Translations under genes and position numbers: made by a program
The notes under the pieces: generated by a model
Databases searched by the model: none
Told to the model about the DNA's origin: nothing
What the model saw: the letters and a program-made list of their open reading frames with translations, nothing else
Source of the DNA: Octopus vulgaris
Taxonomy: Eukaryota
NCBI GenBank assembly: GCA_951406725.2
Contig: OX597814.1
Location: 101,060,001-101,124,000, forward strand
Length of the DNA stretch: 64,000 nt
Reading direction: 5' to 3'
Part shown: piece by piece, positions 4,907-62,224 of the stretch
Numbering within the stretch: position 1 is the stretch's first letter
Layout of the letters: each line of letters begins with the position of its first letter

Positions 4907-6039
4907 CGAGAGAAAGTCAAAGGGTATCCCCACTGTCGCCATAACATATCTTTATTATTGCCTTCTGTGCATGCGTGCGTATAGTTGGTACTATTGTGGG
5001 GTCACGTGATCAACGTTTGAGCCTGATCTCGGCATATTTTCTAGCCTTACAGTGTAAGCATGGCCACTCCAATAGCAATGTGCACCAAAGAACAAACAGA
5101 AGTGATCCGATTCCTCTGGTCGGAAGGTGTGTCGGGTGCTGAAATTCATCGGAAGCTTTTAGTACAATACGGAGACGCCCGTCAACTTCCATCATTGGCG
5201 AGAAGATTCAGTAGGTTCGAAAGATGGTTATGGCGAACCGGCGAGTTATCATCGATGTGGCAGCTTGTTCTCTGCAGATTAGTCATGGTACTGCTCATCA
5301 AATCCTCCACGATGAACTCAGCTTACATAAAGTTTGTGCAAGATGGCTGCCTAGAGACCTTACTGCAGAGCACAAGAGCAAATGTTTGAGATATGCCAAA
5401 GTTTACTCGATTGTTACAAAAATGAGGGAAAGGAACTTTTGAGCAGAATAGTCACAGGAGATGAAACGCGGGTCCATCATTATGAGTCAGAATCCAAAAG
5501 TCAGAGTATGGAGAGGAAACTTCTTGACTCGACAGCGACGAAGACATTCAAGACACAGTCTTGTGCGGGAAAGGTGCTGATAACCCTCTTTTTGGGACTC
5601 AAAAGGCCTATGCTGGAAGACTGCCTGAAAAAGGGGTGTACAGCCCAACATTGTAAGATACAGTGCTTTGCTGGCCAACAAACTGAAGCCAGAAATTCGC
5701 GCCAAACCCCGAAGCCTATTGTCGAAGAAAGTTTTGTTGATGCATGACAATGCACGCCCACACACGGCCACTCAGACCGTCGAAACCATTAACCAATTGG
5801 GATTTGATGGGCTGGAATCCCTTACCTACAGTTCAGATCTCACCCCTTCCGACTATCATATGTCTAAACTGTTCAAAGATGGTTTACGAAGTTGACGATT
5901 TGCTACGGATGAAGATGGGAAGGAAGCGGTGTATAAATGGTTGCATGACCAACCGAAAACATTCTTAGGGGGAATACGCAAGCTTGTGGACCGCTGGATC
6001 AAGTACATCGAAAAGAAAAGAGATTATATAGAAAATTAT
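4907..6039 (+). mobile_element. Decayed mariner (DD34D) transposon
   Basis: Frameshifted ORFs read VIRFLWSEGVSGAEIHRKL, KVCARWLPRDL, IVTGDETRVHHYESESKSQS, HDNARPHT and YSSDLTPSDYH. There is an internal deletion near 5175. The left end resembles TA|CGAG; no right TIR is visible. Confidence 0.92.
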
Positions 6040-6225
6040 TAGGTTCGTCGGTAGGCCTCTCAAGATCTCTACCCTGTTCCATTGACTCTATAGCAGTGCC
6101 GAGAGTTGCGTGCGAGCGAACTGGGTTAGACAGGGCTGCGTGGCTACCACCGACCGTTTCAACCATATTAATGATACAAACAGTCATACTAATTCTTCTT
6201 CTTCTTATTATTATTATTTTTTTTT

Positions 6226-6261
<36 letters not shown>

Positions 6262-7583
6262 CAACAGCAGCAGCAGCAACAGCAATTGGTTTCATCGAAA
6301 ACGCTAAATTAAAAACATTTTTATTGTATGTTTTTGTGCCCTCCTAAAATTAAAGTGACATCAATTGTAAGCATAAGTTCTCCATTTTTCGGGCAAAGTG
6401 TACCACACATAACATAATGCAATGTGTTCTTCCATTTTTAAGACTTTCAATTTCATTTAAATGATATTTAGTTGTTAGAATTTTGGGCAACCATATACGG
6501 TCTCTTAATTGGCTTCGGTTCTCTAATGTCTCTTTTAAAAGTAAACGGCAAACCTTGCCTTTGTATTTTGTTTCTTGAAAATAGAACACGAACACAGCAG
6601 CATCAACAGAACTCCTTTTCTCTCTCTGTCTCTCTCTCTCCTTCTCCTCCCCCTCTCTTTCTTTGAGACAGTAACAACATTAATAGCAACAACTACAGCA
6701 AAACCAGCAGCAACCACGACTACAGTACAACATTGATTTGTTTTGTTTTGTAAATTGTGCTTTGGAAATTAGCCATTTTCTGGCACACTCGCCTTCACTG
6801 AATTGATACAAATTTCCTGGACCAACAGCACGTGTCTTTCGAACCATTTAAAGCTTTAAATACTTCATTCATTTACTTTGTTTTCAATACATTTCTTTTT
6901 CTATTCTTTCTTCCTTTCTTTTATTTTTTCTACCTTCTTATTCACCGCCCCACAAATCCTTCCACTCTCACAAGCATTCACTGTCTTTTTATATTCTGTC
7001 TCAGCCATCAGCCATATATACTGCCTCCCTCTGTCTACGTCTCCATCTATTTACCTGTCCCTCTTCCTTCCTTTCTTCCTTTTTTCCTTCCTTTCTACCC
7101 GTATAATGACCGATCGTCTATCAATGTTGATATCGGGAAATTTTCAGGACAGGCAACCTTCTGATAAATTGAGACCATAAAATCTAACCAGAATTGTTGT
7201 GTGCATGTGAATACAGGAAGTGTACTTATACATAACGCGCATAAGTCTCAGTATGTGGACGACAGTGGGTCGATCAGAACAAAGACAAAATAAGTTTTAA
7301 AAGAAAACAGTTGCTTTCCATACATCGACTAGTGTCTAACGATGTTCTCTTCGTCGTTGCTCATGCAATATCTGTTTCTGCTGATGATGAAGGGATTAGA
7401 TGGAAAGACAAGGAGTTTAATGGGAAGGGAATTGAAGTCTTCTATGTTATTTTGTTTCTTCAGTAGTGATTAGTTATAATTTCTACTTCACCAAGGGTGA
7501 CGATTTCGTTACACGCGTAATCCGACATGGAGCTTGATTTATTTTTTGTAATTTTTACATACATTAATAACTACATAGATTCA

Positions 7584-7639
<56 letters not shown>

Positions 7640-7884
7640 GTATATATATAGATATATACATATATTATTACATATACATGAATATATATGTGTGTATGTA
7701 TGTGCATATTCGTATACATATACATACTTCTGTACACATAGAAAATATATACATCTATGTCTGTACACATACAGACAAACTCACAGCTATCTATTTATCT
7801 CTCTCCCTCTCTACACACAAACACACACACACATACACATACATATATATGCATGTGTATATATCTATATCTATATGTACGCAA

Positions 7885-7942
<58 letters not shown>

Positions 7943-8695
7943 ATATATATATACACATATGTATATTTATATAAATTTGTATTTATATATATATACGCTC
8001 AGACTCATATGTATACAGAAGTGTGTTTACGTAAGTATGCATGTTCTAAAAGGAAAAGAGTTTTAAAAAAAAGTGTATTTTGCATTAAACAGGTGCAGTG
8101 GATTGAATAACTAACGGCAGTCACAGGTAAATGTGGCAAGAACTGGGAGAGGCGCGCAAAGTCACAGGAACAAAGAGACGGGTTATAAGAATACCAGTTA
8201 GCAGACTGACTAGAATCTGTCGCAGCACCAGCCTGTCATTTTCTACACAGGGGAGTACCAGCACACGGCTTGCCAGCTATAAATCCCGGCTGAACAATGC
8301 AGACACATTTTGCAATCGATAAATATAAGGGTCAAACTGCATAAACACATGTAAAATGAAATAATAAATGATAGAGATGTGGGGAGGAAATATGATGGGC
8401 GTTTAGCATGGGTCATGTATATGGTTTTATATTATGTTTGGGTAGACACAAGACAAAAACAAACTCACATTGACACATATATATATGCATACATACAGAT
8501 AGATAGATAGATACATACATACATACATACATACATACATACATAGATTGATAGATAGATAGATACATGACGTATATATGTTTCTACGTGCTTGTATATC
8601 TGCACACACTGATATCTGTGTGTATATGTTGTATATCTGTATAGATATTATCAAACACACACACACACATACATATATAGAGATAGATATGTATG

Positions 8696-8739
<44 letters not shown>

Positions 8740-8996
8740 TAATATATATGTGCATCTATGTATATATACATACATAGACCGAGACACATTTACGCTTAAC
8801 TCTAATGTATATGTAAATAAATGCAAACATACATATATAACTGCGCACGCGCGTCTGTATGTGAAATATTATATACATATCTAACTAGCATGTACTTTTT
8901 ACAAACAATTAGAAACCACTTTAAATAGTCAAACAACACTGATTTTCCCACGTGACCATACAAGCATATAATATAAATATATATATATATATATAT

Positions 8997-9037
8997 AGGA
9001 GTAGCTGTGTGGTAAGTAGCTTGCTGGCCAACCACAT
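8997..9037 (+). mobile_element. SINE family B, head fragment
   Basis: GGAGTAGCTGTGTGGTAAGTAGCTTGCTGGCCAACCACAT matches the head at 44813. Confidence 0.6.
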
Positions 9038-9239
9038 AATATTTACTTTCCTGAAATTTTAGGAAAATATAAATAAGAAGTAAGTGGAAATTTTTCCGGT
9101 GAGTGTGTTAAACTATAAGGCACAAAAAGAAAATTACACTCACCAGACACAACAGAATATGCTTCAACACACGAACTCATATAAAGAATCTTGCAAACCA
9201 AATCCAAAAAGGAAATATATATATGCATATATAATAATG

Positions 9240-9294
<55 letters not shown>

Positions 9295-9428
9295 TAATAA
9301 TAATAATAATAATAATGACAATAATAATAATAATAATAATAATGATAATAAAATAGGGTAAAATTATGAATAATTTCACCAAGTAGTAAGTACGTGAAAA
9401 AAACTTTTTAGGTAAATTATACAAAATA

Positions 9429-9665
9429 TAATTATATACATAATTATGATAAGGGGTCACTAAGTGCCTCGCCACGTACTGAATTAGAAATAGACGCCAA
9501 TGTATTTTCAACCACCATAAAATCTCCGCGACAGTAACGCGCTAACTAAAGTGTTTTATTGTCTCGGAGATTTGATGGTAGTTGAAAAGACAATGGCTTC
9601 TATTTCTAATTCAGTACGTGGTAAGTCACTTAGCTGAGCCCTTATTATGATTATGTATATAATTA
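9429..9665. repeat. Diverged inverted repeat, arms about 115 bp with a very short spacer
   Basis: CCACGTACTGAATTAGAAATAGA pairs with TCTATTTCTAATTCAGTACGTGG; complementarity runs through both arms. Confidence 0.85.
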
Positions 9666-9676
9666 CAGAATATTTT

Positions 9677-10057
9677 AATTGTTTCACTCATTTGACTTTG
9701 GCCATATTAGAGCACCGCATTTAGTCGAACAAATCGACCCCAGAACTTATTCTTTCTAAGCCTAGTACTTATTTTATCGATTACTTTTGCCGAACCGTTA
9801 AGTTACGGCGACATAAACACACCAACATCGGACATCGGTTGTCAAACGATGGTGGGGAGACCATCACAGACACGTGTGTATATATATATACATATATACG
9901 ACGGGTTTCTTTCAGTTTCCGGCTACCAAATCCACTCACAAGGCTTTTGTAGGCACGAGGCTATAGTAGAAGATACTTATCCAAAGTGCAACGCAGTAGA
10001 ACTGAACCTGTAATCATATGATTGGGAAACAAGATTTTACCACACAGCCATGCCTGC
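9677..10057 (-). mobile_element. SINE family B, near full length
   Basis: Reverse-complement homolog of 44813-45240. Confidence 0.85.
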
Positions 10058-10153
10058 ACCTATATATGTATCTATGTGCTTGTATATATGTCTGTAAACA
10101 TTGATCTCTGTATGTGTTGTATGTTTATTTATATGTGTGTGTTTGTGTGTATC

Positions 10154-10230
<77 letters not shown>

Positions 10231-11040
10231 ATCTATCTGTGAATATGTATGTATATTTGTATTTCTGTTTTAATTTTCTCTGCTCATGTATGTGTATATA
10301 TGTGTGTCAGTTTCTGCATAAATATATTCTGTGTGTGCGTGTGTTTATGAGAAAGAGAGCACTCTGGCGTGTGTCAGTCCGTTCCTTTATCTGTTTGTGC
10401 CTGTCTATCTATTTATCTATCTATCGAGCTGTCTATCTAAATATATATCAGTGTGTGTGTGTGTTTGTATGTTTGTTTGTTAGTTTGTTTGTCTGTATGT
10501 ATGTAACTGTAAATATTAGTTTGAGCGTATGTGTGTAATGTGCGTGTATGTGCATGTGTATGAAGCAGATTCTGGCATAAAGAAAGCTAATTGTCTGCAA
10601 AACAATAAAAAAGAGTAAAATAAATAACTTAAACAAAACGTACGCCACAATCTATCACGTGATCCGTGGCTTTACAGACATGGGTGGTAGAATCCCTGAT
10701 GTTGCTGGTGACAAGGTGTGCACCGTTGCACTACGTTCAGAAATAGCGTCTAAGACGATAGTTCTTTGTCGCAACATTGGCCACTAAATGCCGGTGACAC
10801 ACGGCGGCACGTGCTGACGAGATATCGGCGGAAGTACCGCTGTCAGACCTCTGTCTTTTCCACTGACTTTATATCGCATTAGCATTCACTTCCTTTGACC
10901 GCCGCTGTCCGACTAAGCAATTACTGAGTTAAGTAGGAGGCTAGATTGTCAATAGGGGCTACAACAATTATATAAAGGTTTCACACGGATATACACACAC
11001 ATAATCATATCAAGTGTTTTAAGAGCAATATCTATATATA

Positions 11041-11845
11041 CAGGGTGCGGTGAATAAATTGTCGTCAAAATTACGCAAAAGTGAAAATAACACTGAGATC
11101 TTATTTTAACAGATATATTTACCAAAATTACATGAAAATATCTTGAAATATTAAACAGTGGTTGAAGCCAATGATGATTTAATTGCATAAATAAAAACGC
11201 CATTGGCTTCAACCACGGCCTCCAGATGATTTCGGAATCTTCCTACAATTCTTCTGGACGGTCTCTTTGTTTAAGCTGGTGAATGCTGCCATAATTTTTG
11301 CCTTCACCTCATCTTTGGTGTCACAAGGAGTTTTGTAGATCTCTCGCTCAACTGCACCCCAGGCTTAATAATCAAGGAGTTTGCTGCCTGGGGAGTTAGA
11401 TAGCCAGATGTTAGAACTGATGTGGTCGCAGAAATTGTCTGACAGCCAAGACTAGGTTCTCCTGCTCGTGTGGCATGATTCAGAGTTCAGTTGCCAGACA
11501 TAGTGTCTTCCAGATCCCGCCGTCTCCTCCCAGGGCAGCACTACCTCCACCAAGTACTTGAATGTAGCCCCCTCCCCCTGATGAATGGAGGCATAACATC
11601 GTCATCACTAGTGATCACTCCAAACACCATGATGTTTACTGGATGTCTGATTTTTATTACACTCTCTACATATTTTGGGGACACGGGTAGCTAACAGTTA
11701 TTCTGTGTGTTCACTATTTAATCCAGGCAGAAATTTTTCTCGTCTGAGAAAAACCAAAGCATATTCAGTTGTAGGGGATGCTTGAGTTTGTTCAAACGCT
11801 TCGTAGCGCGATCTTTCCTCTCGTCCTTGGATAAAAATTAGACCT
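11041..11845 (-). mobile_element. Decayed Tc1/mariner-superfamily transposase, maT/DD37D-like; 3' part plus one TIR
   Basis: Minus strand reads FFSDEKNF, an ..SCHTSRRT motif and WLSNSPGSKLLDY*AWGAVERE (compare WPPNSPDxNPLDY). The terminus is TA|CAGGGTG at 11041. Confidence 0.8.
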
Positions 11846-11847
11846 TT

Positions 11848-12006
11848 CTCAACTGCAACTTAAATACGGGATTACGCCAACCTTACATGAAACCCAACTT
11901 TAACTTAAGATATATAAATTATCAAAGTAATCATCCACAATCTATAAAAGAAGCTCTTATAAAAAGCGTTAGTAAAAGAATTTCTTATCTCTCTTCTAAT
12001 GAGGAC
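11848..12006 (+). pseudogene. Penelope-like element reverse transcriptase fragment (thumb region)
   Basis: Hand translation LNCNLNTGLRQPYMKPNFNLRYINYQSNHPQSIKEALIKSVSKRISYLSSNED matches the PLE pattern YxKP...Y...SNHP..I...I.KRIS.LSSNE. It is absent from the ORF track. Confidence 0.8.
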
Positions 12007-12850
12007 CCTGTATTTGTAACCATACTAGTAATTAGCAAATGATTTAATTACAATCATTTAATTAGTTTGGAGTTTTGTACTTATGCCTTCTCATAGGTCC
12101 ACTAGGCTGAATGTTTTTAGGGGATGTTTAGACAATTACAGTTTGTCTAGTAAAACCACCGTTTGGGACTTTGGTCGCTATTTCAGAGGATAGATTTAGT
12201 ATTATGATTATATAAGTGAAGGTCAATGCCCTAGCCATTACCTCCCCTTTACGGCAGTCGCACCTTAACCGTAGTACCTTCTTTCTTACGGTGCTTGTTT
12301 ACATGTTTGGCTGATTTGTTTATAATGTCTTAAGCAGCCTTGGGCCACTTATAGCATATGCTACTTCTCCATACATTTACTTGTTATTTACTTCTTTATT
12401 TACATTTACCCCTATAATGGTCTTAATAGCTTGCCCTTTGGTTTTTAAATTTAACTGACCAATTATATTGATGGCTGGACTCTGGTCAATCCTATTATGG
12501 ACAATATGTGGTTGGTCTTTACAATATATCAGTAAGTATATAAAATGATTAATTTATGGGCATGTTATTTAGATTAATATTAATTATTATTATTTAGGAA
12601 TCTTATGTACTCTTCCTTTTCTAGACCTATTGGCGTATCCCGCTATACCAAAGTACTGATCTTACTTTTTTATTATTTATACACCCTGCTACTCCTAAAG
12701 AAATATTAACCCACGAATTAATTTTCTAGTTCAGTCATTTACTCAACCACCGGAACTGTTACACTGCAAAATGTTATGATTCAAAGATACTAAGCCTCCA
12801 TTCATCCTCTCGAGGCTCTTTTATCTTATTTTCTTCTATGTATTTTTCTT

Positions 12851-12970
12851 CACCCTGATGCAGCTCCATGTTCCCGATCGGATGTGCTATAGAATTTGAC
12901 GAATATTATTCTCAGAATTTTCTTTGGCGGCGCTGTCGGACATTGGAAGCAGAAACGGCTGTTAGTTGGG
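12851..12970 (+). ncRNA. Degenerate hammerhead with long stem II, downstream of the Penelope RT fragment
   Basis: CTGATG(C)...GCTCCATGTTCCCGA...TCGGACATTGGAAGCA-GAAAC-GGCT-GTT. The core has a substitution and stem I pairs poorly. Confidence 0.45.
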
Positions 12971-13385
12971 ATAAAGTTTTGTATTAAAAAATAATAATTG
13001 ATGGTAGTCATTTTGTTGTTAATCAAGAATTTCTCCATTTTCTGCTTAATTTAAATTTGATTCCTTATAAACTCTTGTTTATCAGACGGGCTTTTCGAGG
13101 TGCGCGCAGAGTGACGAAACTGTTCTGCACGCACGCGACCAATATCCGGGCGTTGGTGACGTGTGGAGTTATGTCGAACAGCTGCTGTCACGCGTGGGAT
13201 GGATCCGTCTATCGGCCGAGACTGTAGTGATAATTTCCCCACCGCCATCCTCCAATCATGCAGGCAAGGCAGTTTTCTTTTGCTTGATAGTTGTGGCGAA
13301 AATGTTGTTTGGTGGACAAGGTTGGAAAGCATGAGTACGAATATATTCCTCTTTGGGAGAGCTCTCACATCTTCTTCTTCTTCTT

Positions 13386-13477
<92 letters not shown>

Positions 13478-13750
13478 TTTTTTTTTCTTCTTTCAAATTT
13501 TCTCCCATTTCTTGCCGAGTGTCTTCCCGACTCCTAGGGCAAAGAAACTCATAGTGTATATTGGTAGGCCATTAAACCAAACTCAGTAGTTCGTTCATTT
13601 TTTTTTTTTTTTTTTTTTTTTAAAGTTAAATTAAAATACATGAGCAGCAACAGTTCTCACATCGACAATGCTCTTCTCAATACGTGTGATGTACCAGTTA
13701 AGACAATCTTTTGCACTTCTTGCAGGGATGGTAAGCCAGGGATCATTCTC
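13478..13750 (-). mobile_element. Dong/R4-like non-LTR retrotransposon, severely 5'-truncated (copy 1)
   Basis: Minus strand reads MIPGLPSLQEVQKIVLTGTSHVLRRALSM* (stop at 13657-13659), homologous to the C-termini of copies 3 and 4. (AAT)n lies on both sides. Confidence 0.88.
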
Positions 13751-13768
13751 ATTATTATTATAATAATA

Positions 13769-13837
<69 letters not shown>

Positions 13838-13862
13838 TTTATTTTTATTATTTTTATTATTA

Positions 13863-15222
13863 GTATTCCTTCGTAACACAGTGTAGGTTAAAATGCACCG
13901 GAGTCTTTAGTCATCTGTCAAATCACAACAACGACCTCAGGTAGATGATATTTTCCTTAAGGTGTGCGCTATACCCAATAAGGCTGTTTTTCGCAAGACA
14001 TCAACCTTGCATAAGATTTCCAGTTGCCTTAAGAAGTCTTGAAGTTTCAATGGTATTGAGCCCAACGCTCCGATCACCACTGCTGTATTATACTTAACGT
14101 CCTGTGTATTCCTTTCACACTATCCATGCATTCTCATTTCAAGATCTTTTCTCTTTTCCTTAGCTCTTTGGTAAGACTCTTCCTTGCCCATCATTTCATC
14201 TGCATTTACATCCATATCTTTCGCGGAATATTGCAGCAGGTCTTCATCATTATTTATCAAATAAGCGGCAAGCGTTATCTTTACACTCCTTATACAATGG
14301 TCTATACTAATTAATCCTCTGTCACCACTCTTTCTTTTCATATACAGTCTGTTTACGTTTCTTTAGGGTGTAGCGCTCTATGCGGCATCATCAACTTTCT
14401 CGTCCTTCTATCCAGTGTTGATATTTCCTCTTTAGTTCATTTGAGGATGGATGCACTATATCTGACCACCGTAACTGCCCAGAAATTCATTGCGGTAATC
14501 AGATTTTTGGCATTCAGTTTAGATTTCAATACCATCTTCACTCTTCTTTGATACGCCTCGCTGACTTTGACTTTCATTTCTCTGAATGGAATGTCATCCA
14601 GCTCCAAAATCCGTAAATATCCATAACCACTACCGTCGGGTTCAACCCACGGTCTCGCCTGACGGTAACCGCAGTCCTCTGAAGGATGCGTTCTCCCTCT
14701 TTTCATATTAAGTACCGATCATTTGGTAATTCCAAATTCCATACCACACTTCTTGACTGTTTTGGTTAAGGAATCTATCAGTTTTCAGATTTCCCAGAGA
14801 ATTTCAAGTCATCCACAAACGAAAGATGGTTCAATGATGAGCCTTTCTTCCCACATCGGTAATCCATCTTAACTTTCCTAAGTGTCATTGTTATGGGTAC
14901 AAGTGCAATTACAAATAGTAACAGAGAAAATGAGCCACCTTGTAAGATACCCCTTTTAATATTAACTTCTCCAAGGAATACACTACTTCAGTTCAATTTG
15001 GTTTTCAACTCTTTCATGCTATGCATCAGAAAATTTGTGATGTTGTCAGGAAAGCAAAACATCTGCAGGAATTCAACGATCCAAGAATGAGGCATCATAC
15101 CATATGCCTTCTTAAAGTCAATCCAAACTATAGACATGTTTGTATGTTTTCCACATTGCCTCAAACCTGTTTTATCGATACCGGGTGATCATTGGTACCC
15201 TGAGAACTCTTCCTAGAACCAT
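13863..15222 (-). mobile_element. Dong/R4-like non-LTR retrotransposon, old and internally deleted (copy 2)
   Basis: Fragments WIDFKKAYGMMPHSW, RGILQGGS, HLSFVDDLK, RRVKMVLKSKLNAKN and VVIGALGSIP...TALLGIAHTLRK. The zinc knuckle and most of the endonuclease are missing near 14110. Confidence 0.88.
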
Positions 15223-15242
15223 TTCTTCTTCTTCTTCTTCTT

Positions 15243-15337
<95 letters not shown>

Positions 15338-15339
<2 letters not shown>

Positions 15340-16857
15340 GTTTGACTTTTGCTTTATATTTGCACAAGTTGGCTCCAAGTCTCACCCAGAGACCTCAAGA
15401 GACAACAGGTTGGAAGTTCATGTTGTTGTTATGCCTAGTGTGCCATATATTTGGGGGGAGTTTTTGGTGTTGTACTAATGAATGTCTAAAAAAAAAAATT
15501 TTTTTTTTCTTTTTCTTTAAAAACCGAAAATTATGTTTGTTTTAAACCTTGAGATTACATAGAAAGTATTTTGCGTAGGATATGAGCAGTTCTCATAAGC
15601 ACTATCTTTTGAATTTCTGCCATTTTTGGGTTTCCTGGTATCTGAGTTAGGTAGCTATCAGCCCCTTTTGCTATCATTCCCAGGGCACCTATGACAACAG
15701 GTATTGTTTTAGTCTTCAGCTTCCACATTTTGCTGATTTCTATTTCAAGATCTTTATATTTGCTCAGTTTTTGGTAGGTCTTGACAGATACGTTTATATC
15801 GATTGGGACAGTCATATCAATGAGGAGGCATGTTCTTTGTTTGAAGTCTTTCAATAAGATGTCTGGCCTATTTGCATCTATCTTTCTGTCAGTTTGAATG
15901 GTGAAGTTCCAGATGAGTGAGATGTGGTCATTTTCAAGCACTGGGGGTGGTTTGTGTTCCCACCAGTTTTTTTCATGGGGCAAATCCAGGTTTTTCCAGA
16001 TTACCCAGTGAATATATTGTGCAGCTCTATCGTGTCTGTTGAGATACTCTGTAGGCGCTAGAAGACTGCACTTGGAGACCACATGGTCAATGGTTTCATT
16101 TTGTTGCTGGCATACACGACACTTTGGACTGCTTCTGATCTTTAATATGTTGGCCTGGTAGTTTCTTGTTGGTAGGCATTGATCTTGAGCTGCTATGATA
16201 AACCCCTCTGTTTCAGATTTTAAGCCAGAGGCCATTAGCCATTGATGGGTCAGGGCTTTGTCAACATCTGCATTATTTGCTCTCTTTGGGTATTTGCCAT
16301 AGAGAGGTTTTTCTTGCCATTTATCATTCAGAATATCTAAGGCCGCAAATTTAGCACGGGTTTTCATGCGCTTAGCTTTTTCTGTGCCTGTTTCTTGTAT
16401 GTCTACCTCTAATTCCGAAATTTGTTGTATTCGGAATTCACTTAGATATTCCTTTGCCTGTTTCGTTACTGAGCATGATGCTTTCTTGTTTTCATGTTTT
16501 GAGACAAGTTTTAACATCCAGTCCTCAGAGTTTTTCAGGTAGGTGTCTAGGCCAATTGTAGCAATCTTCATTGTTATTGCCAGTTGTAAAAGTCCACGGC
16601 CTCCCTCTTTTCTTGGCAGGTAAAGTCGTTCTGTATCTGCCTTAGGGTGGTGCATTCTATGCATTGTCAACAGTTTTCGTATTTTTCTGTCAAGATTACA
16701 TATTTCAGTAATTGACCAGTTAACGATATTGAAACTGTAAGTCACAACTGGTATGGCTAATGCATTGATCGCTTCGATCCTGTTTCTCGCATTCAGCTCT
16801 GTCTTGAGTATTGCTCTTACTCTGCGATAACATTCTCTCCTGATCCTTTCCTTCATC
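15338..16857 (-). mobile_element. Dong/R4-like non-LTR retrotransposon, 5'-truncated (copy 3)
   Basis: Open ORF plus about 215 bp of 3' UTR, with (AAT)n at both ends (about 15271-15337 and 16858-16945). Confidence 0.95.
15555..16856 (-). CDS. Truncated retrotransposon ORF: RT thumb, CCHC knuckle and PD-(D/E)xK restriction-like endonuclease
   Basis: CRVCQQQNETIDHVVSKC, RHD, RPDILL...LIDMTVP...KLSKY. The poly-Asn N-terminus in the ORF track is microsatellite read-through. Confidence 0.88.
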   Translation of the reverse strand: MKERIRRECYRRVRAILKTELNARNRIEAINALAIPVVTYSFNIVNWSITEICNLDRKIRKLLTMHRMHHPKADTERLYLPRKEGGRGLLQLAITMKIATIGLDTYLKNSEDWMLKLVSKHENKKASCSVTKQAKEYLSEFRIQQISELEVDIQETGTEKAKRMKTRAKFAALDILNDKWQEKPLYGKYPKRANNADVDKALTHQWLMASGLKSETEGFIIAAQDQCLPTRNYQANILKIRSSPKCRVCQQQNETIDHVVSKCSLLAPTEYLNRHDRAAQYIHWVIWKNLDLPHEKNWWEHKPPPVLENDHISLIWNFTIQTDRKIDANRPDILLKDFKQRTCLLIDMTVPIDINVSVKTYQKLSKYKDLEIEISKMWKLKTKTIPVVIGALGMIAKGADSYLTQIPGNPKMAEIQKIVLMRTAHILRKILSM

Positions 16858-16927
<70 letters not shown>

Positions 16928-19393
16928 CATTATTATTATTATTATGCTCGGGGATGTGTTCTTTAAAATTGCGTAAGACCAATGTATTCTGTAAAGGGAT
17001 TAATATTCTTATAAAGTCTAATATTTATTAAAATTTCGGATATGTACTTATGTGCGTGCGTCATTATGCTACATATATACATACGGATATATATATATAT
17101 ATATACTATTCTGGTAACCATTTGTTTACAAAAGCTTGTTGGCATGGAATTTGTCTATATAGATAGGAAGGCAAAGAAACTACTCATATTACTGAGTACA
17201 AAGTCAGAGCAGACGAAAATAAAATCAATTTCGATGAAACAGAAACGAACGAGTTCAGAATGATAGTGTGAGAGAGAGTAAAAAGGAGAGAGAAAAGACC
17301 ACTTTCTTCAGTTATGTTTACATTATTTCTATGATAAATAAAACTCACGGCTGGAAATTATTTGAAAATACATTAATATACCAGTTTCATATGAAATGAT
17401 TTCTTGAAAATGAATTAAAATATGTATAAGCAGTTATAAATGTAGGTAACATATGATATTCGAATGAACATAATATAATGGCCTTTTGAATCGGTGAAGT
17501 GAAAAAGTACAGAACACTAGAGCGGTGATCGGCTTTAAATGTGCTCTGATATGGTTTAAGGACAGGTTGTGTATTGATACTAGTGGTATGAAGATCCTTG
17601 ATTTTGTTGTATTTTAAGTTAAGTTCAGTCATTTATGCATATAATTATTAGTTGGATAGTTCACTCTAATGAGGTGGGTCAGCAACCATATTTTCAGATT
17701 TAACAACTGGTCTGCAAACTCGAAACGGCGTAGGGACCGTTAGACGCATCCAAAGGTCATATAGTGAGTTTAAGTGAGTGTAGCAATAAGTTTATTTTCT
17801 CGTCATATACTCTGCGTACAGGCAACAACCATCACAGGCTTCACTACCGGAGTCTCAATACTTAAGATTTTTTATCGAGAAAAAACAAGAATGATTCCTC
17901 GTTGCCTTCTTCCGAGTTATTTACATATCACACTTATAGTTTCCTAATTTCCCCATCTTCCTCATGAGACATGGCTCATATTTTACCGTTGAGCAAAGAC
18001 CGGGGACTGATTCATGCGTTTTGGTTACAAAGCAATGGGCTTGTGTGACGTGTGTGTAAGAGCTAATCCACTTCCGTGTTCTGTATGCATTTACTCTATG
18101 AGCATTTCCTGGTATGAGACTCGTAACTAGAGGCAATCTCAGAATAGATATGACCAGCACAGACCAGAGCGGACGTAGGAATAGTGGTTACTTGACTTTA
18201 AAATGACACCATCCTCTGTAGAACTCATGTACTCCCAAGCTGGCGTCTTACTGCAGGATGGCGTTTACATCTTGCCAAGAGCATGGATTAGGTCTTTCAC
18301 TGATGAACAGGAATGATCGTTCTGACAACGATAATTTCAGTTTCTTACGATCAAATGCTTCTTTAACCTCCATGCTGTCGTAGAAAGCACTTTTGACGAA
18401 AGCGAACCTGATTTCACTTAGTTACGAAGAGGATTTCTCCGGTAAACAAACGTATCCACAAGTATAGGTGTTATTTATTAGCATCTATTATTTATTTATT
18501 TTTCTTCAGTAATACATATTTTAGTATACACATAAAATCAAAGAGTTGGAGTCAAATCAAAGAGAGATGCATTGACTTTTAGCTCAACATGTTAGATAAA
18601 GGAGCAAATATCACTTAAATAACATTATTGACCTGCAAAAATTTAGGCGAATATAAGATAAAGTAGTCTTTACACAAAGTCTGAAAAGAAAATGCAGATT
18701 GGAACAAACATAACATACATATATATTTCATCAGAACTGATTGATTTTCGCTTGCTTGGAACAGCAAAATTTAAGAAAGCTTTCATTGGAAATTTATGGA
18801 TTAAAGTGAGATCGAATATCACCCTGTCGATTAAAAATTATTGAGTATATATTTGATAATGGAGTCCTCGTAATAATAAGGTTGAACAGCAGTGGATACA
18901 GTACCGGTTGCCCGATGAAGATTTGCCATAGAAAATCGTAGCAGCTGAGTCGAGGATGTAGCATATCTCCCAAACGAGTAGCCAAATATTTATGTACTCT
19001 TGGTCGTTTGCACGATAAGGAGTGAAGTACAACTACGTAATAGGCACAAGTACATGAACCCAGCGCATTCGTACACATTTGGTCGAGTGCAAATATACAT
19101 AGAAATAAAGTCAGGTTTTGTGTTTAAACAGACATCGAACAAGGGAGACAGAAACAGAGAGAGAGAGAGAGAGAGAAATAACGAAACAAATTACGAGAGA
19201 GAGAGAGAGAAATAAGGAAAAAATAACGTGAGAGAGAGAGAGAGACCTGCTCATAATACTGGATAAATTTTGTTCTAATTTACAAAGCCGTGGACATTCG
19301 CCCAGACTTGTTTCACTTTTCGTTATAAATGTGTCCCATAATTATGAGACACATTGCACACAAATACACACCTAGAAAGACAGATAGACAGAC

Positions 19394-32240: not shown

Positions 32241-36035
<3,795 letters not shown>

Positions 36036-41924: not shown

Positions 41925-43093
41925 TGTGTGTGAATGTGTATGTGTGTGTAAGCGAGTTAAAGAGTCCTTGTCATGGACGATGTGAAGCAGAATTGTCAAG
42001 TAAAATGGATTTCAAGGGAGAAAGAAAATCTTTGAGTGAGGAAACGTGCAATTGCGAGTGTGCGTATGTGTGCAGGTAGACAAAATGGTATTTGAAAGCG
42101 CTGCTGGGTATATGCGTAAGTGTTAGAATACAAGACAGTTGGTGACTGGTGTTATGTGCATGTATGTGCGTGTGTGCCTGCATGCACGTATGTGTAGGTA
42201 TACGAAGATATGCGTCGGTATGCGCGTGTTAAAGTAACGATGTATGTGAGTGTGTGTGAATATGCCGCTGGTTATAGGATTATGAAGGGTTTGAGATGAC
42301 AGAAGAGATGTGATATATGTATATGTGTGCAAGTGAAATGTGCAGGGGTTGGTAGGAAAGAGCCTGTTTATGTGGAAACAATGTTAGTGTAGTGGGTATG
42401 TGGATCGATGTGAAAGAAGAAACTCCTTTCCAGGAGACTAAATGATCGGTGAGTGATGATGTGTTTGTGTGAATATGTGTGAAGTGTGTGTATGCGTTTG
42501 TGCTTGTGTGTAGGTTGGTAGGTATATGAGTGCGGAGAGTGGATATGTGAGTGTATGTCTCTATTATCATAACAGTGTGTCTATGTGCATGTGTGTATGT
42601 GCATTCATGAACGTGCTTGTGAATACGGGTATGTGAAAGAGATGAGAAAAAAGATAAGTGTATCTGTATATGGAAAAGAGAGTCGTGTGAGGGTGTTAGG
42701 AAGAAGTGTAGCTTAAGATTTTTGTATGGAAACACGTCCTCAACTGATGAAGACAGATCCTATGCAATCCAAACATTTGGAAAGGATTCCAGAGTAGATA
42801 AACACCCCAAACACCACTCGACTGCTGTTCATAGCTGAGCATAGGAAACCAAGATGCTACAAATGTGGAAGTACCATTAAAGTTAAGTTGCATATTTGCT
42901 AATAACAGAAGTTAAGATATGGAACGCCTGTACTGACACCAATCACGTTATCAGAATCAATAACGACATCAGGAAAAGCAACAGCATAAACAGCAATGAG
43001 AACAGCGTTAACAGCAACATCAGCAGAAAGAACAGCAGCAGCAACAATAACTGAATCTATCTAAAAATCACAAAAACAATACCGACTAACACC

Positions 43094-43878
43094 TATTTCT
43101 TTACTATCCACAAAGGGCTAAACACAGAGAGGACAAACAAGGACAGACAAACGGATTAAGTCGATTATATCGATCCCAGTGCGTAACTGGTACTTATTTA
43201 ATCGACCCCGAAAGGATGAAAGGCAAAGTCGACCTCGGCGGAATTTGAACTCAGAAGGTAACGGCAGACGAAATACCTATTTCTTTATTACCTACAAGGG
43301 GCTAAACACAGAGGGGACAAACAAGGACAGACAAACGGATTAAGTCGATTATATCGATCCCAGTGCGTAACTGGTACTTATTTAATCGACTCCGAAAGGA
43401 TGAAAGGCAAAGTCGACCTGGGCGGAATTTGAACTTAGAAGGTAACGGCAGACGAAATACCTATTTCTTTATTACCCACAAGGGGCTAAATACAGAGGGG
43501 ACAAACAAGGACAGAAAAACGGATTAAGTCGATTATATCGATCCCAGTGCGTAACTGGTACTTATTTAATCGACTCCGAAAGGATGAAAGGCAAAGTCGA
43601 CCTCGGCGGAATTTGAACTCAGAAGGTAACGGCAGACGAAATACCTATTTCTTTATTACCCACAAGGGGCTAAACACAGAGGGGACAAACAAGGACAGAA
43701 AAACGGATTAAGTCGATTATATCGATCCCAGTGCGTAACTGGTACTTATTTAATCGACTCCGAAAGGATGAAAGGCAAAGTCGACCTCGGCGGAATTTGA
43801 ACTCAGAAGGTAACGGCAGACGAAATACCGCTAAGCATTTCGCCCGACGTGCAAACGTTTCTGCCAGCTCACCGCCTT
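43094..43878 (-). mobile_element. SINE family A with one head and four tandem 184-bp body units; 16-bp TSD
   Basis: Units start at 43091, 43275, 43459 and 43643. TSD AATACCGACTAACACC at 43078-43093 and 43879-43894. Confidence 0.92.
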
Positions 43879-44449: not shown

Positions 44450-44899
44450 GCAAGACTCCTTAATTGGAGACTTAATGATACAGCCATAAAGCAACGGGGT
44501 TTTTTAAGTACAAAAATATAGACCTAATAAAATTGAAAAAAAAAATAGAAAGATAGAAAGATAGAAAAATAGAAAAATAGAAAGATAGAGTGGCTGTGTG
44601 GTAAGTAGCTTGCTCACCAGCCACATGGTTCCGGGTTCAGTCCCACTGCGTGGCATCTTGGGCAAGTGTCTTCTGCAAGACTCCTTAATTGGAGACTTAA
44701 TGATACAGCCATAAAGCAACGGGGTTTTTTAAGTACAAAAATATAGACCTAATAAAATTGAAAAAAAAAATAGAAAGATAGAAAGATAGAAAAATAGAAA
44801 AATAGAAAGATAGAGTGGCTGTGTGGTAAGTAGCTTGCTCACCAGCCACATGGTTCCGGGTTCAGTCCCACTGCGTGGCATCTTGGGCAAGTGTCTTCT
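44450..44899. repeat. 225-bp direct tandem duplication including a SINE B head
   Basis: GCAAGACTCCTTAATTGGAG at 44450 and 44675; the copies look identical. Confidence 0.9.
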
Positions 44900-44972
44900 G
44901 CTATAGCCCCGGGCCGACCAATGCCTTGTGAGTGGATTTGGTAGACGGAAACTGAAAGAAGCCTGTCGTATG

Positions 44973-59954: not shown

Positions 59955-60104
59955 CAGGGTGGCCCAAAAGTAGGTTTACAGTTATCACGTAGGGACTTTC
60001 AATTTCTTTTAAAACATATTACATTTAAATTTCTATCGTACAATTAAGTAAATCGGCATAGAATAATGGTTGAATAACTGCAAACCTACTTTTGGGCCAC
60101 CCTG
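59955..60104. mobile_element. 150-bp Tc1/mariner-type MITE
   Basis: 31-bp TIRs CAGGGTGGCCCAAAAGTAGGTTT(A/G)CAGTTAT with 1 mismatch, and a TA TSD. Confidence 0.93.
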
Positions 60105-60249
60105 TATATATATATATATATATATATCAACAATCAAGGAACGGCCATAATAGGCCATTCATCCACTAGAAATAACAGCCAAAGCTTCAACCGCAAATAA
60201 AAGTTAATTCTGTAAACCAGGAGAAAATTTAAAAAACATTTACCCTGTA

Positions 60250-60356
60250 ATTTCTTATACGATATACCGTTTCATCTGCTGATTAATGGTAAACTAACCT
60301 GATTAAATTAAATCAAGCCAATCTTCCACAGGCCCTCAGATTCGTCAGTAAGAAAT
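60250..60356 (-). ncRNA. Type I hammerhead ribozyme with extended stem II (unit 1)
   Basis: ATTTCTTA-CTGACGA-ATCTG...CAGAT-GAAAC-GGTATATC-GTA-TAAGAAAT. The core is complete, stem I has 8 bp, and the triplet is GUA. Confidence 0.9.
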
Positions 60357-60742
60357 AGCCCAAGTCGGAACAGATATTTTCACGAGGCATTTCCGACCTT
60401 GCCAAGTTTATATCTGACCTAAAATTTTCAAATCGTCGCACTCGCGCCAAATTTATCGGCAGCAAATAAATATAAGCCGTCGATTCCATTACGGAATTAA
60501 CCAGAAAATTCATAATTAATCAATATAGGGTGGCAAAAAAAATTTTGTAGAATTCTTTTGTCACCAGCGGCCTAGTAGGAAAAAATTAAATAGTCATAGA
60601 CCATTTTTAAGTTTAACATCAACAATCAAGGAACGGCCATAATAGGCCATTCACCCACTAGAAATAACAGCCAAAGCTTCAACCGCAAATAAAAGTTAAT
60701 TCTGTAAACCAGGAGAAAATTTAAAAAAACATTTACCCTGTA

Positions 60743-60849
60743 ATTTCTTATACGATATACCGTTTCATCTGCTGATTAATGGTAAACTAACCTGATTAAA
60801 TTAAATCAAGCCAATCTTCCACAGGCCCTCAGATTCGTCAGTAAGAAAT
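60743..60849 (-). ncRNA. Type I hammerhead ribozyme with extended stem II (unit 2)
   Basis: Identical to 60250-60356 and 493 bp away. Confidence 0.9.
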
Positions 60850-61275
60850 AGCCCAAGTCGGAACAGATATTTTCACGAGGCATTTCCGACCTTGCCAAGT
60901 TTATATCTGACCTAAAATTTTCAAATCGTCGCACTCGCGCCAAATTTATCGGCAGCAAATAAATATAAGCCGTCGATTCCATTACGGAATTAACCAGAAA
61001 ATTCATAATTAATCAATATAGGGTGGCAAAAAAAATTTTGTAGAATTCTTTTGCCACCAGCGGCCTAGTAGGAAAAAATTAAATAGTCATAGACCATTTT
61101 TAAGTTTAACATCAACAATCAAGGAACGGCCATAATAGGCCATTCACCCACTAGAAATAACAGCCTTGATTGTTGATGTTAAACTTAAAAATGGTCTATG
61201 ACTATTTAATTTTTTCCTACTAGGCCGCTGGTGGCAAAAGAATTCTACAAAATTTTTTTTGCCACCCTATATTGA

Positions 61276-61330
<55 letters not shown>

Positions 61331-61363
61331 TACACATACATATACATATACATAACTTGCATT

Positions 61364-61399
<36 letters not shown>

Positions 61400-62224
61400 T
61401 ATATTATGATATGATCGAACACCACGCATCCTTTTCCAAGTAAGTCTTATCTTAATAATTACGATGTGCACTTTTATTCTCTTTCCTTCGTCTTTTGTTT
61501 TTTTTTAAATTCCAACTATATATATGTATGTATATATGTATGTATGTCTGTATGTATGTATGTATGTATGTATGTATGTATGTATGTATGTATGTATGTA
61601 TGTTGGTAAATTATCACAAGAAAAACATTGTTAGGGGCTTTTGAATTGCTCGTCTTCATTAATTAGTAACTGATGAAGGTAAGCAAACGGAAGCTTCGAA
61701 GTCACTGTTAAACATTTCCTTGTTTAAATTGATATGTACTCTACTAAAATGATACTAAAATGATATCACTTGAATGTGAAATTGTCTTCTATGACATCGC
61801 ACAATTCGTACAATATTTGAAACATCATGAAACATGCAAGAACCCACATTTTAGTGCATCGTAGATTATTATTTATGTTTTTATGTCACCAAACTTAAAA
61901 GGAAACTTTCTCATTTAAGTGTACGTATTTGAAAAAGTTAGTAGGTATTAAGAAGAGATAAGACAGTTAATGGAAATCTATTATATAGATCCTGATAAAT
62001 TATGAAAAAAAAAAATTCATTTTAACGATATTCACATCATCAGTCATCGCTGACGCCTACGATATAGAACGTCCACTTGAAGCATTCGCATGAGTCGCTG
62101 GAAACTGAGTAAAGAATTAACGAGGTTTCAAGTACCATTTCGGTCGACCTCCTGAAGACAGCAGTCTTCAATTCGCATATGTAACAATATCAAAAAATAA
62201 AGGAACAGCATACTGGCCCTGAAA

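Follow-up and report, generated by a model that had tools for sequence, protein, structure and literature searches.

Animal non-LTR retrozymes, as far as the accessible parts of two reports describe them (PMC7229834; bioRxiv 10.64898/2026.07.22.740005), are non-coding, low-GC tandem repeats with one type I hammerhead ribozyme per unit, arranged as dimers to multimers and co-occurring with Penelope-like elements (PLEs). Circular RNA intermediates and mobilisation by PLEs are proposed there; the circles have been demonstrated experimentally, and their closure by RtcB and copying by PLE reverse transcriptases (RTs) is put forward as a hypothesis. The typical unit is ~300 nt, in a range of 51-972 (Li et al. 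2026, as far as available). A palindromic helix III that lets the ribozyme act as a dimer has been described for metazoan type I hammerheads in the part of PMC4209133 available, and only one of nine Xenopus retrozyme dimers is reported as cleaved in vitro in the bioRxiv text available (10.64898/2026.07.22.740005).

PLE insertions, in the available portions of PMC8557442 and PMC3846280, consist of a partial tandem joined to an inverted, 5'-truncated copy, with a one-sided tail; according to these sources and PMC11167929, such insertions enter AT-rich targets, start from two fixed sites that lie downstream of the hammerhead, are cut short at the 5' side to varying extents and have tails of 30-40 nt. 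Fold-back self-priming has been proposed as a model for such insertions (PMC3846280). In vitro, a PLE protein from Anolis nicks and extends both target strands, and its two RT start sites on the RNA bracket the tail (PMC11167929, in part). Hydra-clade PLEs always carry hammerheads and insert into (TA)n, and Chlamys PLEs such as MRC1 include non-autonomous, multicopy head-to-tail insertions (PMC8557442, main text in part). In the accessible text of this literature, hammerhead cutting in PLEs in vivo and PLE copying of retrozyme circles are treated as open or hypothetical (PMC8557442, PMC11167929, PMC7229834, PMC4209133).

The Octopus vulgaris locus described here has features of both systems. 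Like a retrozyme it is non-coding, dispersed in many copies and has tandem hammerheads in at least two consecutive units, and like a PLE-mobilised element it has a tandem plus an inverted, 5'-truncated copy and a one-sided tail, in a genome that holds an intact PLE. The mobile element at this locus is 493 nt long, encodes no protein and has hundreds of recent copies. The kind of element is known and the family itself appears to be new, and the mechanistic evidence it offers is useful.

Within the window, by which we mean the whole 64,000-nucleotide stretch that was analysed, the insertion is made up of a tandem pair of units (60126-61110), a 55-nt stump of a third (61111-61165) and an inverted repeat (Table 1). 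The two units are nearly identical, as an earlier note on this DNA had stated, and differ by two substitutions and one indel. The inverted repeat (120 bp), which that note does not mention, is a 100% inverted copy, and the two arms meet with a 2-nt overlap. Arm A, whose RNA sense is the minus strand, is 1041 nt long, in keeping with the note's proposal of more than two passes through the unit. (TA)n, likewise unmentioned there, adjoins both outer ends, and a target-site duplication, if there is one, is hidden because the target is itself a (TA)n repeat. That the insertion has no recognisable protein holds in substance: a 66-codon frame does exist in each unit, but we rejected it as coding because its pN/pS is 1.19, its start codon is absent in eight of nine sister-family copies, and it has no match in Pfam; it likewise has no match to a Hydra ORF. 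No contig from public sequencing runs bridges the insertion site, and an empty allele was accordingly not found among them.

Table 1. Window coordinates of the parts of the insertion and its flanks
Feature	Position	Strand	Remarks
(TA)n target, left	60105..60125	.	same flank at nearly all family loci
Arm A	60126..61165	-	begins at fixed end A (60126), comprises 2.1 tandem units and breaks off at unit position 55
Unit 1, 492 nt	60126..60617	-	
Unit 2, 493 nt	60618..61110	-	
Type I hammerhead 1	60250..60356	-	predicted cut 60258/60257; self-complementary stem III; 69-nt stem II arm
Type I hammerhead 2	60743..60849	-	predicted cut 60751/60750
Predicted 493-nt cut-to-cut monomer, putative linear or circular template	60258..60750	-	inferred from both cut sites
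106-nt "tail" between start sites A and B	61005..61110, also 60512-60617	-	hairpin 61022-61058 kept in sister families
Arm B	61164..61283	+	inverted copy of 61005-61124; from fixed end B (61283)
(TA)n target, right	61284..61306	.	

The insertion occupies (TA)n directly at the right end of a 150-bp MITE-like element (59955-60104) that has ~25-bp terminal inverted repeats and TA on either side and is highly repeated in public sequencing runs. End B shortly resembles the end of this neighbor; an origin as a DNA transposon was rejected, since the outer ends of the insertion differ and its inner ends vary. Elsewhere in the window there are four tandem copies of a 184-bp unit (43091-43829, 97% alike, no hammerhead in the scan), which we take to be akin to the 3' portion of a common SINE/RTE repeat of octopus. 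There are also a perfect 225-bp tandem duplication (44450-44901) and an unusually long (ATA)590 run (34263-36032), both of which may be assembly effects.

The minus strand of each full unit carries, as the earlier note had described, a complete type I hammerhead with an 8-bp stem I and a GUA triplet; its stem III is self-complementary. The CUGACGA core lies at 60348 and 60841 and GAAA at 60273 and 60766, and the two predicted cuts are 493 nt apart. The ribozyme region folds with z = -3.3 (none of 200 shuffles was equally good) and the 493-nt monomer, folded as a circle, with z = -4.6 (against 40 shuffles). Comparison with Rfam, proposed as a check in the note, gave no hammerhead match for this region, either at the gathering score or at E<=10, likely because stem II is long (69 nt); in this the element differs from the animal retrozymes and shows that long-stem-II hammerheads can escape Rfam. 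The miRNA matches that Rfam did return arise from the inverted repeat and were discarded.

In an alignment of 14 ribozymes, which are chosen copies related by descent from families 65-100% related, the core is invariant, its free position varies among all four bases, and 8 of 17 base pairs change on both sides. Pairing is 90% in the true register compared with 35-52% in slid controls, and stem III is paired in 100% of cells in the self-complementary (dimer) register. Judged from these sequences, in which the core is constant and pairs covary across sister families, the ribozyme is under selection. The plus strand at 60001-61400 has no CUGANGA core, and the suggestion of a viroid-sized replicon passing from RNA to RNA is unsupported.

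The genome searched comprises 2.8 Gb. A 24-mer from stem II has 854 exact matches (0 for the reversed control), and the best matches to the unit, at 98-100% identity, lie on many chromosomes. Junctions with the target number 435 for (TA)n|A and 1030 for (TA)n|B, the second figure also taking in older subfamilies at 88-97% identity. Sister families at ~75-80% and at 65-70% identity share the two ends, and each has a unit homologous to this one and a hammerhead of its own; the ribozyme pattern of those at ~75-80% has 217 matches, and the tail hairpin is kept in sister families with paired changes. The element is young, non-autonomous and multi-locus, as had been proposed; the genome-wide copy-number search turned up many loci and not the single one by which a local duplication would have been recognized. 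Contigs from all four sequencing runs guessed to be RNA, for which run type and strand are unrecorded, cover all 29 bins of the monomer; joints in sequencing-run contigs at which the sequence goes back 493 fit tandem DNA as well as they fit a circle.

Other non-coding families with hammerheads, most with a palindromic stem III, were encountered in the same genome (L117:2200-2870, L105:3760-4310, L169, L231:1218-1309, L240:765-861, L137 and L344:7602), those of L117 and L169 sitting in (TA)n. The genome appears to be rich in retrozyme-like elements.

Two sets of insertions were examined for their ends. Set 1 comprised the first 70 listed loci with an A junction, all of them examined (30 on C1, 38 on C2 and 2 on C3). 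An inverted arm beginning at unit position ~388 (site B) is present in 61, one of these rearranged; the second arm is absent in nine, and none has A at both outer ends. Set 2 comprised 40 further loci (41 insertions) picked by their B junction; eight lack an A arm, and four, rearranged or from another family, were not fully scored. There are two fixed start sites, one per inverted arm, 133 and 239 nt downstream of the cut, B being 106 nt further downstream than A, and the inner ends of the arms vary between insertions. The genomic register of the insertions is offset from the ribozyme cut. The circularly permuted ends read by the earlier note are not found, start points being confined to the same two sites at all loci, and because these ends are fixed they are in themselves uninformative about a circle. 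In its anatomy the element matches the PLE pattern of a partial tandem, an inverted copy and a one-sided tail. Fold-back self-priming was rejected as the only mechanism; it cannot make 44 of the 86 two-arm insertions, and two separate priming events are therefore favored.

The ribozyme cut lies 133 nt into an arm begun at A and 239 nt into one begun at B. Scoring of set 1 took in 126 arms, with five rearranged arms excluded and lengths curated by hand from alignments, and 36 of the 102 arms that meet unit positions 105-137 for the first time stop there. This interval was chosen after inspection of set 1; applied unchanged to set 2, it takes in the ends of 19 of 52 arms, giving 55 of 154 (36%) overall. 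The background is 4.4% per 33 nt, with 0-10% in ten control intervals. At second or later encounters 7 of 82 arms stop (8.5%, CI 3.5-17%), which may be slightly above background (p = 0.07). The pooled difference between first and later encounters has p = 2e-6, and set 2 alone is not significant (p = 0.12). Loci found as best DNA matches or by the 24-mer, which are biased to long copies, were used for comparing units and entered the stop counts only where they were also among the first 70 A junctions.

There are 25 insertions in which each arm extends to the first cut and one or both end at it; in 21 of these both end. Elsewhere, inner ends are <=32 nt apart in 15 of 55 insertions, against 7.9 expected. 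Few arms end just past the cut (2 of 66, at positions 140-172), and three stops overshoot it by 2-4 nt. Many stops lie at 105-112, an A/T palindrome 20-28 nt before the cut, with stuttered A/T filler. The same double stub was seen in one sister-family copy. The simplest account of these ends would have two classes of template, one a linear RNA that has the cut as its 5' end and the other an RNA without an end at that point, and about one third of the arms look as if copied from linear cut RNA. We therefore think it highly likely, from the pattern of ends, that the ribozyme cleaves RNA in vivo. The available part of the Anolis study differs on this point, with the ribozyme dispensable in vitro and no RNA reads ending at the cut (PMC11167929).

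We compared 152 full units drawn from 55 loci, a sample biased toward long, young copies. The median difference is 1 substitution for units of the same arm, 1 for units of opposite arms and 9 for units of different loci. Rare alleles fixed in all units of a locus number 38, and 25 of them extend across both arms; at one locus (L031), seven identical units are spread over both. The junction is exact in 224 of 225 copies that span the cut, the remaining one being unreadable. Arrays reach up to 9 units, the longest arm having 9.4. Given this homogeneity and these junctions, most arrays look as though a single monomer had been read over and over. Such reading is explained most simply by a circle, and uncut transcripts of very young arrays could also give it. 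Minor alleles are common to both arms in 5 of 54 cases, four of them at L110 (G000:C4:46280000-46289999), where the arms also share an internal (TA)n|A junction and a rearrangement and have start sites one unit plus a tail apart; the mirrored rearrangement and shared alleles indicate that the template there was multi-unit, one RNA primed twice. As separate observations, L047 repeats a 234-nt deleted sub-unit twice and L035 has a partial period-3 pattern of variants, which could stem from smaller or larger circles. Taken together, the stop pattern, the homogeneity of arrays and the exact junctions make a circular template probable for most arrays. The earlier note's idea of reverse transcription round a circle is accordingly likely as far as the arrays go and does not extend to those arms that look linear-templated.

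We consider it likely that the element is a non-LTR retrozyme inserted by a borrowed PLE RT-endonuclease, from cut linear monomers in the case of stubs and from circles in the case of arrays. A tandem copy would be transcribed on the minus strand, and its ribozymes, probably acting as a dimer through the self-complementary stem III, are predicted to cut the transcript and free the 493-nt monomer, a step for which the positions of the copy ends speak. Some of the freed monomers would then be ligated into circles. Copying on both (TA)n strands, from A and from B 106 nt downstream, would give the inverted arms, whose footprint is seen. If the monomer is linear, both copies would terminate by run-off where it was cut, producing a short palindromic stub, and if it is a circle they would pass the junction and lay down near-identical tandem arrays of up to 9 units; this locus, with 2.1 units in arm A, would be an array outcome. 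More tentatively, and as a possibility that falls a little short of probable, the whole family may be a record of one RNA in two topologies, a cut molecule copied twice from two start sites onto both target strands, in which the linear form leads to a dead stub and the ligated form to a fertile array.

It seems unlikely to us that the long arms were copied from multi-unit RNA of young arrays that had stayed linear and uncut, with circles playing no part and the ribozyme yielding stubs only. The mirrored multi-unit template of L110 is what such transcripts would give, exact junctions fit uncut RNA too, later stops may slightly exceed background, and uncleaved RNA was the dominant substrate of the Anolis PLE in vitro (PMC11167929, in part). 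Against this, minor alleles in both arms are confined to five cases, four of them at L110, and lineage-specific alleles are fixed through whole arrays. Copying linear arrays cannot lengthen them, yet there are arms of 9.4 units, and the equal stop rates predicted by independent partial cleavage are rejected by the observed 36% vs 8.5%. The 5' end of one linear monomer might also be joined to the 3' end of another by a jumping RT; linear monomers apparently do serve as templates, and filler at stub ends shows repeated re-priming. However, the 224 of 225 internal cut junctions without gain or loss of a base, and units that are near-identical within a locus although the family is diverse, make arrays built in this manner very improbable.

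The pile-up at 105-137 could have a cause other than cleavage, namely RT stalling at RNA structure or joining at the A/T palindrome. There is a predicted hairpin immediately 3' to the cut, many ends at 105-112 carry stuttered filler, and inner ends are weakly coupled elsewhere, all of which would suit this reading. A structure would be met at every pass, though, whereas the excess is at the first; arms A and B stop at one template position despite different synthesis lengths, and few ends lie just past the cut, so that we regard stalling or joining as an improbable cause. Tandem and inverted repeats in microsatellite-rich DNA are prone to mis-assembly, and a plain local duplication, a satellite, a DNA transposon or an assembly artefact has to be weighed here as well. 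With at least 435 dispersed insertions that agree in their two fixed ends and vary in their inner ends, a ribozyme that covaries, and the unit present in independent public runs of several organisms, the likelihood of any of these is negligible.

Returning to the preferred reading, insertion by a borrowed PLE enzyme, we find mobilisation by a Penelope-like RT, which had been proposed before, very probable, since the two fixed ends, inverted arms and one-sided tail match the PLE pattern. The partner is probably of the Hydra clade. Intact PLE ORFs with RT and endonuclease, of 842-1072 aa, are present in the same genome, and two families are assigned to this clade by their motifs. Family 1, with ORFs of 949-1072 aa, has RWK or RWR, DKT, a CxCX5C linker, CxxC, CxH, a hammerhead and a (TA)n target; family 2, of 842 aa, has RWA in place of RWK and the other Hydra motifs. 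Both resemble the element in their long-stem-II hammerheads with palindromic stem III, (TA)n flanks, inverted arms and long tails, their A and B ends being ~115 nt (family 1) and 80-90 nt (family 2) apart; unlike them, the element encodes nothing, and it has no detectable sequence similarity to the Hydra families sampled. Family 2 is young, since at least 34 copies among the best 150 scored have identical endonuclease domains. The named relatives of the PLE proteins of this genome are from Argonauta, and the supplement of PMC8557442 has Octopus under Naiad in the two of four places shown.

The loci examined (L251-L270, L274-L303 and L344-L348) contain at least two young PLE families of the Hydra clade, which combine intact ORFs with asparagine-rich inserts, hammerheads and tails of ~80-120 nt, far above the published 30-40 nt. 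A young PLE family encoding a 781-aa RT/GIY-YIG protein (L104 and L119, on G000 C16 and C5) has an upstream 479-codon frame and (TA)n ends, and a canonical hammerhead was absent from its scan. Within the window, a decayed fragment at 11848-12006 resembles the thumb region of Hydra-clade RTs, with 43% identity across 53 aa.

Each partner search scored the best 150 of 6,000-19,000 candidates. Among 168 loci sampled around matches to the PLE endonuclease, we found no autonomous element that has sequence in common with the unit, and alignments of the unit with three autonomous 5' regions were no better than shuffles. Hydra families 1 and 2, a decayed third and the matches to the endonuclease domain of a public relative all proved dissimilar to the unit. 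A likeness of the unit to the start of the Hydra ORF was rejected when it failed the shuffle test, as was the 781-aa family, which accounted for most of the GIY-YIG matches and is without similarity to the unit. The earlier note had looked to linkage with RT/GIY-YIG ORFs; copies of the unit near ORFs (L073, L130/L271, L261, L265, L321 and L327) are insertions in their own right, (TA)n or other DNA lying between them and the ORFs. The guide to the partner is thus anatomy only, and the partner may be a family beyond those sampled.

Set against the described systems, the element has a GC content of 35%, low as in the animal retrozymes, and its 493-nt unit is long compared with their typical size and inside their range. 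Inverted arms with two starts, targeting of (TA)n and a run-off footprint at the cut are undescribed in the accessible text of the retrozyme papers, and the circles demonstrated there are for the octopus element inferred. Compared with the published PLEs, as far as their descriptions were available, it has no ORF and a tail of 106 nt, both of its arms can be multi-unit arrays, and its copies often end at the ribozyme cut. The Chlamys elements of the MRC1 type, in the part of PMC8557442 available, differ from it in resembling their autonomous partner at the 3' end and in mostly being without canonical hammerheads. Our search of the open full-text literature found no paper on the family or on a PLE-ribozyme run-off footprint.

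The family offers a countable genomic test, in that the first cut is the endpoint of a third of arms, later cuts are the endpoint of few, and the two arms of an insertion behave alike. The young, intact Hydra-clade ORFs in the same genome place a small defined RNA and candidate enzymes at hand for reconstitution. If the reading of one RNA in two topologies is true, and Hydra-clade PLEs behave alike, circles made by the ribozyme would be the normal source of PLE tandems, and the long inverted arms of Hydra-clade PLEs would come from twin priming on one RNA.
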